Source of the DNA: Escherichia coli | Lineage (GTDB): Bacteria; Pseudomonadota; Gammaproteobacteria; Enterobacterales; Enterobacteriaceae | Assembly: GCF_003334315.1 (NCBI RefSeq) | Contig: NZ_QOWR01000028.1 | Length of the DNA: 57,407 nucleotides | Strand: one strand, 5' to 3' | Part shown: piece after piece, positions 18,341 to 19,317 of the stretch | How positions within the stretch are numbered: the first letter of the stretch is position 1 | How the letters are laid out: every line of letters starts with the position of its first letter | The notes under the pieces: generated by a model | Told to the model about the DNA's origin: nothing | Databases searched by the model: none | What the model saw: only the letters and a program-made list of their open reading frames with translations | Position numbers and translations under genes: made by a program

Positions 18341-19317
18341 GAGTGGGTTCCGTACTCTTTGTTTAGTGTGATTGTGACAGGCGTTTCACCGCCGTCTGTA
18401 AAGCGTATGCCCCGACAGCTGTATGCATAGCGATAAATTCCAGCAGGCCGGGACGCCGGTCTATTTTGCCCCAGAGTGTCAATGTTAGACTTGACGGACA
18501 TTGTGCAGCGATCTGCTGCTATCCTCCGGCAAAAAACAAAATATACCTTCGTTGCGCCAATGTCACCTTTTCCGCAGCGCAAAAACTGCGTCAGGGAGGA
18601 CGAGGTCGCACATTATAACGATTTCGTAGCAATTGGCAGCTAAATACTGGTCTTATCAGGGAAGATAATCAACAGCTAACATGTAAATAACCTTCAACAC
18701 CGTGTAATTTGCAACAAGCCGCACAATTCACGAAATTAGCGCCATCATCGACGGAACTTCTTATAACGTAAGGTGAAAAGCTGAAAAGCCAGCCCTGCGA
18801 AGATGAGGGGCTGCAATGAGATAATCTTCACAGACCACAAATAATGTAGGGATGCCAGGATCGCGACAAGATAGACGACATTACGCAGCGGTTGCTGGGG
18901 ATTACCCAATTTTCACTGCATCGTCTGGATAGATGTGAATGCTAAAGCACGCAAAATTAACCGATTGACAATGCTCAGCATTAAATAGGTTCGAGTGATT
19001 AATTTGTAGTCAAACAAAATCAGATTATTCACCCCATGGTACCAGAAATAAGTAAGGGGCTAAGCGTAGCGTCGCCCAGGCAAAGCACCATAAACCTAAC
19101 AGGCGACGGAGGCGTATCAATAATAGCTGTTTAGTGGAGTATCAATGCGCATCAATTTGTGGTCAGTCGAAATCATGACTTTCCAGTTTGGATGATGTTG
19201 TATAACTTCCTGACCAAGGTGTTCGACGAAAGCTGTCCGGCTAACCGCTTTTCCCGTTAACCGATTGAATAATGATTTCAAAATGAGTTCCCTCTCTTAT
19301 TATTCCCTGCTAAATGG

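Follow-up and report, generated by a model that had tools for sequence, protein, structure and literature searches.

Several described systems bear on the DNA upstream of the accBC operon of Escherichia coli. MsrQ (YedZ) is the heme-binding membrane subunit of the MsrPQ methionine sulfoxide reductase system (PF01794, NF003831). AroQ is a type II 3-dehydroquinate dehydratase, and in Enterobacter, Raoultella, Kluyvera, Yersinia and Erwinia its gene precedes accBC in the order aroQ-accB-accC. Rfam holds, as RF02764, the family Ysr190 (Yersinia sRNA 190). Control of accBC is reported to follow growth rate and to involve autoregulation by AccB, the latter described together with a proposed role of FadR (PMC11602165, PMC3896788); direct FadR control of acc operons has been proposed as well (PMC11602165). 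In E. coli K-12, two pseudogenes, yrdF (b4697) and yrdE (b4646), are annotated beside acuI and listed as such in a J. Bacteriol. paper (PMC7648144); the DNA studied here is the same and shows no difference from them.

The window that we analysed, a stretch of 57,407 nucleotides of E. coli DNA, carries accC, accB and acuI in this order on the minus strand, with csrD beyond them on the plus strand. A spacer of 977 bp (18341-19317) separates acuI from accB, bounded by the accB start codon (ATG, 18340-18338) and the acuI stop codon (19318-19320). As adjacent spacers in the K-12 annotation measure 10, 108, 151 and 304 bp, the gap is unusually long, which bears out what a preliminary description of this DNA had remarked. 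The same description had seen about 1 kb without a substantial open reading frame (ORF) and, indeed, the gap holds no intact gene; its longest ORF encodes 89 aa (18313-18582, minus strand), and all others encode 55 aa or fewer. The AT-richness ascribed to it is real but mild (45.1% GC versus 50.9% for the whole window). Around the gap the sequence differs from K-12 MG1655 at 1 base in 2977, and the gap was found in all 5426 of the 5426 complete E. coli genomes searched, with 90-100% identity.

The preliminary description had allowed for the accBC leader as a partial explanation of the gap, and had offered a small RNA, a decayed gene or extended regulatory DNA for the rest. With a probability of roughly 0.9, we read the gap as three gene remnants together with the accBC promoter and leader, and not as the site of an undiscovered gene or sRNA locus. 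Seen from the acuI side, it would begin with a 143-bp fragment from the N-terminal end of a DUF1444-like gene (yrdF'), followed by the 3' two-thirds of an msrQ gene (yrdE') left from an ancestral msrPQ operon, both presumably functionless. A sigma-70 promoter would come next, once that of aroQ-accBC, with an invariant upstream block that probably binds FadR. The last part would be a leader of about 266 nt composed of the aroQ 5' untranslated region (UTR) and a gutted aroQ that has kept its start codon and last 15 codons. The leader thus does account for only part of the gap, the msrQ and DUF1444-like remnants filling the remainder, and the suggestion of a decayed gene applies three times over. 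Much of this is ordinary and already known, since two of the remnants stand in the reference annotation and the length of the leader has been noted before; its derivation from aroQ adds a minor point for which we found no earlier description.

Comparison with related genomes shows what the gap once contained. We surveyed synteny by a scan for AcuI with one genome per species, which gave 80 loci. In about 70 of these 80, among them Citrobacter, Klebsiella, Raoultella, Enterobacter, Kluyvera, Salmonella arizonae, Yersinia and Erwinia, acuI and accB flank an intact msrP and msrQ, and the order acuI-msrP-msrQ-(aroQ)-accB holds in almost all other Enterobacterales loci examined. Four Escherichia lineages other than E. 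coli (L005-L008) also carry msrPQ at this site, with MsrP and MsrQ proteins 91-94% identical to those of K-12. The working operon of E. coli K-12 is located elsewhere, in the arrangement hiuH-msrP-msrQ-zinT, and E. albertii has the same hiuH-msrPQ-zinT arrangement, beside a two-component system. Based on the synteny of the relatives and on the hiuH-zinT position of msrPQ in K-12 and E. albertii, the gap marks where msrPQ stood ancestrally, which makes yrdE the positional orthologue of msrQ.

Within the genus, E. coli and E. albertii have a derived state in common, comprising msrPQ at hiuH-zinT, an MsrQ of 211 aa, and a remnant plus the DUF1444-like gene at the old site. In four further lineages of the genus, E. 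whittamii among them, MsrQ has 199 aa and an intact msrPQ stands between acuI and accB. This distribution misfits what we take to be the tree of the genus, unless recombination or a long period with two copies is assumed. The acuI relatives of Buttiauxella (L079 and L080, 76% identity) adjoin neither msrPQ nor accB, unlike those at all other loci.

The msrQ remnant yrdE' occupies 18745-19138 on the minus strand (K-12 coordinates 3404638-3405031 map to 19138-18745) and corresponds to msrQ codons 69-196. It shares with msrQ the position after acuI and before accB, and lacks codons 1-68 and the partner gene msrP; although msrP is present at this site in relatives, no similarity to MsrP was found in the gap. 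In a tblastn comparison (E = 9e-40), residues 69-98 of K-12 MsrQ align to 19132-19043 with 77% amino acid identity and residues 101-195 to 19035-18751 with 67%, the two parts lying in different reading frames. At the nucleotide level, blastn aligns 382 bp to E. coli msrQ, with 77% identity and one gap of 1 base. The frameshift is a 1-base insertion near 19040; an in-frame TGA stands at 18913-18915, where MsrQ has Arg141, and a premature stop at 18745-18747. Where a functional MsrQ requires a frame of about 199-211 codons, yrdE' keeps only codons 69-196, with the frameshift and stops. It scores 95.8 bits (E = 2.5e-27) against the NCBIfam MsrQ model NF003831, which is under the 130-bit cut-off, and PGAP labels the same stretch in other strains as a YedZ pseudogene.

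His91, His151 and His164, which we take to be the heme ligands of MsrQ, are invariant in every intact MsrQ retrieved, and of these three yrdE' keeps only His164. His91 and His151 are both replaced by arginine, the remnant reading WATLRLAPY and QPLRNVVYL where MsrQ has WATLHLTSY and QQLHNFVYL. Compared with the cryptic Escherichia clades, yrdE' is 77-79% identical to their syntenic msrQ, the DNA from 18747 to accB is 88-100% identical and acuI 87-89%, a pattern that agrees with free decay of yrdE'. As a separate observation, a protein of 196 aa from ENA contigs of less than 1 kb (P0002) appears to be an intact MsrQ whose C-terminal 38 residues differ from the yrdE remnant at 1 position; its N-terminal part looks like an Enterobacter-type MsrQ, which may point to a recombinant allele or to chimeric assembly.

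The preliminary description had singled out an inverted repeat, CGTCGCC/GGCGACG, in this part of the gap. The repeat exists (19070-19076 and 19102-19108), yet it sits in former msrQ coding sequence and is one of 13 seven-base inverted pairs in the region; a search for inverted and direct repeats returned only pairs of 7-8 nt, at chance level. One 16-nt pair with 81% complementarity (18453-18468 and 18537-18552) lies within the leader. Folding of whole regions was unremarkable, with z = -1.3 for the leader and -1.2 for 18745-19317.

Between yrdE' and acuI lies yrdF' (19139-19281, minus strand; K-12 coordinates 3404495-3404637 map to 19281-19139), a stretch of 143 bp. It corresponds to codons 1-48 of a DUF1444-like gene with 271-276 codons, because the full gene opens at the same start in E. 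albertii and in O26:H11. In E. albertii, the same TTG, 36 bp past the acuI stop, opens a gene of 271 codons (L009, 6012-6827), and in the O26:H11 strain 11368 (L085) a gene of 276 codons; the two full proteins have 251 of 271 residues in common. The 36-bp spacer between the acuI stop and the TTG (19282-19317) hardly differs from that in front of the full gene in O26:H11 and E. albertii, and contains a purine-rich stretch, GAGAGGGAAC, as a possible ribosome-binding site. Assignment of the full protein to a family is weak by score: Pfam DUF1444 (PF07285) matches it with E = 0.0045 and 17 bits over model positions 15-253 of 264, and NCBIfam PRK13668 with 23.5 bits against a cut-off of 221; PGAP names the full gene DUF1444 in some genomes. 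What this adds to the K-12 annotation is the parent of yrdF, a DUF1444-like gene that is still intact in E. albertii and in 12% of E. coli.

This long form, with the full DUF1444-like gene, occurs in 670 of the 5426 complete E. coli genomes (12%). Relative to the short form of the window, 19038-19138 (msrQ codons 69-100) is swapped for 855 bp. A derivation of the K-12-type gap from the O26-type gap by one deletion was rejected, as each has sequence that is absent from the other. The 185 bp beside acuI are single-copy in E. coli and resemble neither msrP nor the acuI-msrP spacer nor the K-12 msrPQ locus. An origin of yrdF as a diverged msrP 5' end or acuI-msrP spacer was likewise rejected, since Smith-Waterman scores equalled those of shuffles and the true parent gene was found. 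We also considered a reciprocal swap by which the C-terminal tail of MsrQ would have come from the start of the DUF1444 gene (LRSLFNRL in K-12 MsrQ versus MKSLFNRL). This match is treated as chance because it covers only 7 of 8 residues (E = 0.2-0.8) and no similarity continues further downstream.

On the accB side of the gap, the comparison with relatives points to a third gene. The spacer between msrQ and accB is about 393 bp long in Escherichia, Citrobacter, the K. oxytoca group and a few others, and about 708 bp in Enterobacter, Raoultella, Kluyvera, Leclercia, Trabulsiella, Pluralibacter and Erwiniaceae, being longer still in Yersinia; the extra DNA of the 708-bp class is aroQ. An intact aroQ of 150 aa lies immediately 5' of accB in Enterobacter (L056, 7888-8340) and Yersinia (L078, 8068-8520). 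The aroQ of these relatives matches TIGR01088 at 209 bits and ends 21 nt before accB. The 3-dehydroquinate dehydratase of E. coli is the type I enzyme AroD.

Aligned by blastn with the E. cloacae locus L056, the E. coli sequence falls into two blocks. The first (18678-18499, 79% identity) ends exactly at the aroQ ATG, and the second (18409-18320, 96%) runs from the final 15 codons of aroQ through its stop and the spacer into the beginning of accB. Between the two blocks, aroQ has lost about 314 bp, and its two ends lie in different frames. The C-terminus of aroQ is found by tblastn with E = 4.5e-6, the last 15 codons being identical at 14 of 15 positions. We place the aroQ remnant at 18363-18501 on the minus strand, with the start codon at 18501-18499, degenerate 5' codons at 18498-18411, the last 15 codons at 18410-18366 and the stop at 18365-18363. 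Because the middle 88 bp resemble aroQ only marginally (z about 2) and cannot be aligned between genera, the remnant is defined by its two ends and its position. A 22-nt spacer with the accB ribosome-binding region follows (18341-18362), nearly invariant in 69 Enterobacterales loci. E. coli thus shares with the aroQ-accB-accC arrangement the promoter block, the 5' UTR and the start-codon position, as well as the last 15 codons, the stop and the 21-22 nt before accB; it differs in lacking the roughly 314 bp of aroQ and in the degeneration of the remaining 5' codons. A functional AroQ requires an intact frame of about 150 codons, which the E. coli remnant does not have.

Taken together, these alignments make it very probable that the accBC leader of E. 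coli descends from aroQ, as its 5' UTR plus the gutted gene. We found no annotation of the remnant in the K-12 record and no description of it in the literature on aroQ with accB. Li and Cronan (1993) reportedly noted that the accBC leader is unusually long and has an ORF inside it; a gutted aroQ would explain both features. The 89-aa ORF at 18313-18582, which the preliminary description took to be spurious, contains the ancestral aroQ start codon as an in-frame internal ATG (18501-18499). It overlaps the accB start out of frame and matches no NCBIfam family, in keeping with that judgement. A translated upstream ORF of 62 codons, running from the aroQ ATG (18501) and overlapping the accB start, was weakened as a candidate, since among 14 aligned aroQ-less sequences from outside Escherichia the ATG is lost in 7 and the AGGAG in all. 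In Escherichia the aroQ Shine-Dalgarno sequence AGGAG now reads AGCAG, and in most other aroQ-less genera AGAAG.

Loss of aroQ is patchy, the gene being absent from the K. oxytoca group and present in Raoultella. At least two sequence types of remnant occur, one in Escherichia, C. amalonaticus, C. sedlakii and Intestinirhabdus and another in the C. freundii and K. oxytoca groups, yet the spacers are nearly equal in length (383-413 bp in most).

Upstream of the leader, former msrQ-to-aroQ intergenic DNA (18672-18744) is weakly conserved, with 88-90% identity to other Escherichia, and cannot be aligned outside the genus. The adjoining block at 18604-18671, on the minus strand like accB, behaves differently. 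About 62 bp of it (roughly 18671-18611) are essentially invariant from E. coli to Yersinia and Winslowiella, conservation dropping sharply on either side, and it contains no polymorphic site among nine E. coli. A scan of 18200-19450 found 4 promoter-like sites versus 2.0 ± 1.3 in shuffles; the best, with 10 of 12 matches, is CTGCCA-16-TATAAT, which places the -35 element at 18639-18634 and the -10 element at 18617-18612. Sharp-edged invariance of this kind would suit a promoter that has an activator site upstream of it. From the motif and its conservation, we infer that 18604-18671 is the sigma-70 promoter of accBC (ancestrally of aroQ-accBC), with a predicted transcription start near 18606 and hence a leader of about 266 nt. 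The true start could be further upstream, since the Rfam Ysr190 model reaches 18637 at its 5' end. Within the invariant upstream block, the sequence CTGATAAGACCAG (18659-18647) resembles what we take to be FadR operators, and the block probably binds FadR at this candidate site.

The leader itself contains several elements that are kept across genera. Its 5' part (18502-18603) is the former aroQ 5' UTR and the homologue of the Ysr190 region of Yersinia. It holds a hairpin at 18573-18590, whose stem sequence differs between genera while pairing is kept, an invariant GGTGACA box at 18561-18567, an invariant U-rich block, UAUAUUUUGU, and a small hairpin with a 3-bp helix at 18507-18520, whose loop encloses the aroQ Shine-Dalgarno sequence in species that keep aroQ. 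Another hairpin lies about 40 nt before the accB start, within the aroQ remnant (18376-18396), and is conserved mainly by invariance. The two small helices of the 5' part were named by hand and then tested by pair counts: 82% of cells were paired versus 30-42% in slid controls, and the covariation score was 0.34 versus at most 0.18. Folds of the 5' leader, computed for each sequence, averaged -6.5 kcal/mol versus -3.6 in shuffles; RNAalifold gave no consensus structure on the 5' leader alignment. Judged by their conservation, the two hairpins, the GGTGACA and U-rich boxes and the hairpin at 18376-18396 would act in cis on accBC expression. The GGTGACA and U-rich boxes could equally be a second promoter, GTGACA-17-TATTTT (18566-18538, minus strand), directly 5' of the old aroQ start. 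Both of its hexamers are invariant across Enterobacterales.

The strongest alternative to the reading as remnants plus promoter and leader is an independent sRNA gene equivalent to the Yersinia Ysr190, whose product would be transcribed within the region upstream of accB or released from it. A permissive Rfam search of 17800-19900 returned only a chance snoRNA match and a sub-threshold match to Ysr190, which is full-length, lies at 18538-18637 on the accB strand and falls within the accBC promoter and leader. Three Yersinia species have Ysr190 matches of 96-130 bits in the corresponding place, after the msrQ stop and before the start of aroQ, and the E. coli stretch is homologous to it; Ysr190 is also among the sRNAs found expressed in a study of Y. 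ruckeri (PMC12112432), and one of the covarying hairpins falls within the matching stretch. The E. coli match, however, reaches only 25.3 bits (E = 0.41), far under the gathering score of 66, and it overlaps the -35/-10 block on the accB strand. Terminator-like sites in 18200-19450 numbered 0, versus 0.9 in shuffles, and the Rfam and terminator scans detected no independent sRNA in the gap. Given the overlap with the promoter and the strand of the match, the simplest reading would be that the Ysr190 family represents the segment of the aroQ-accBC leader next to the promoter, and not an sRNA gene in its own right. We therefore regard an sRNA gene here as improbable, and this part of the preliminary description found no support: Ysr190 is the only Rfam signal (25 bits versus 66), a terminator is lacking, and 18748-19317 varies at the rate of silent sites. 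In Yersinia similis (L083, 4875-4981, minus strand), a strong match to another Rfam family, Ysr224 (134 bits), lies just upstream of acuI.

The variation within E. coli separates the parts of the gap clearly. Among nine diverse E. coli, 47 of 391 sites are polymorphic in yrdE (12.0%) and 13 of 179 in the yrdF part (7.3%), while acuI shows 43 of 975 at all positions (4.4%) and 34 of 325 at third codon positions (10.5%). The DNA upstream of accB (18341-18747) has only 4 polymorphic sites in 407 (1.0%; Fisher p = 2e-11 for yrdE versus these 407 bp). These counts indicate that the pseudogene part, 18748-19317, drifts at the silent-site rate, the yrdF part being less polymorphic than yrdE on small numbers. 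Within Escherichia, strong constraint acts on the promoter and on the leader with its aroQ remnant, and the same gradient of conservation appears in comparison with other Escherichia species. A search for conserved blocks and covarying stems, which the preliminary description had suggested, thus finds them in the promoter block and the small leader hairpins, whereas 18748-19317 drifts. An IS1A insertion splits the gap match in two in strain 14EC017 (NZ_CP024134.1), consistent with dispensable DNA.

These data also bear on the possibility that the whole gap, pseudogene DNA included, serves as extended regulatory DNA of accBC, for example as bent or H-NS-bound AT-rich DNA or through distal promoters. 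Its base composition (45% GC) and its retention in every E. coli genome searched would suit such a role, and Li and Cronan (1993) are said to have described bent DNA near the accBC promoter. Conservation ends abruptly at 18671, however, with silent-site variation throughout 18748-19317; in relatives intact genes replace that stretch while the promoter block is unchanged; 12% of E. coli genomes have 855 bp of different sequence in place of about 100 bp of it; and IS1 has entered the gap in at least one strain. Such a role for the whole gap is therefore very unlikely.

A functional small protein from the yrdF ORF (19117-19281, 54 codons), kept after truncation of its parent, is equally hard to credit: although the frame is open in the window with the start codon of the parent and a purine-rich stretch before it, and its product is labelled a hypothetical protein by a few genome annotations, with the same protein on hundreds of contigs, its relatives come from Escherichia only, its last 6 residues are out-of-frame msrQ sequence, its length differs between strains (54 to 92 aa), its 11 variable sites fall 4/4/3 on codon positions 1/2/3 and so give no sign of coding constraint, it matches no protein family, and the K-12 curators list it as a pseudogene (PMC7648144).

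With the gap read as three remnants beside the accBC promoter and leader, a false lead is removed, as nothing new would be hidden in it. In E. coli and E. albertii, msrPQ now stands behind hiuH, beside the hprRS two-component genes, and the old copy has decayed. The locus would also offer a clean case for measuring the erosion rate of dead DNA beside an essential, highly constrained promoter. More tentatively, and in our view doubtfully, the kept parts of aroQ, namely its 5' UTR, start region and final 45 nt, may under strong purifying selection have been reused as cis targets of AccB autoregulation or growth-rate control, possibly through a Ysr190-like leader RNA. Reading the leader as a gutted aroQ would also narrow the search for the cis elements of AccB autoregulation to a few short invariant blocks.
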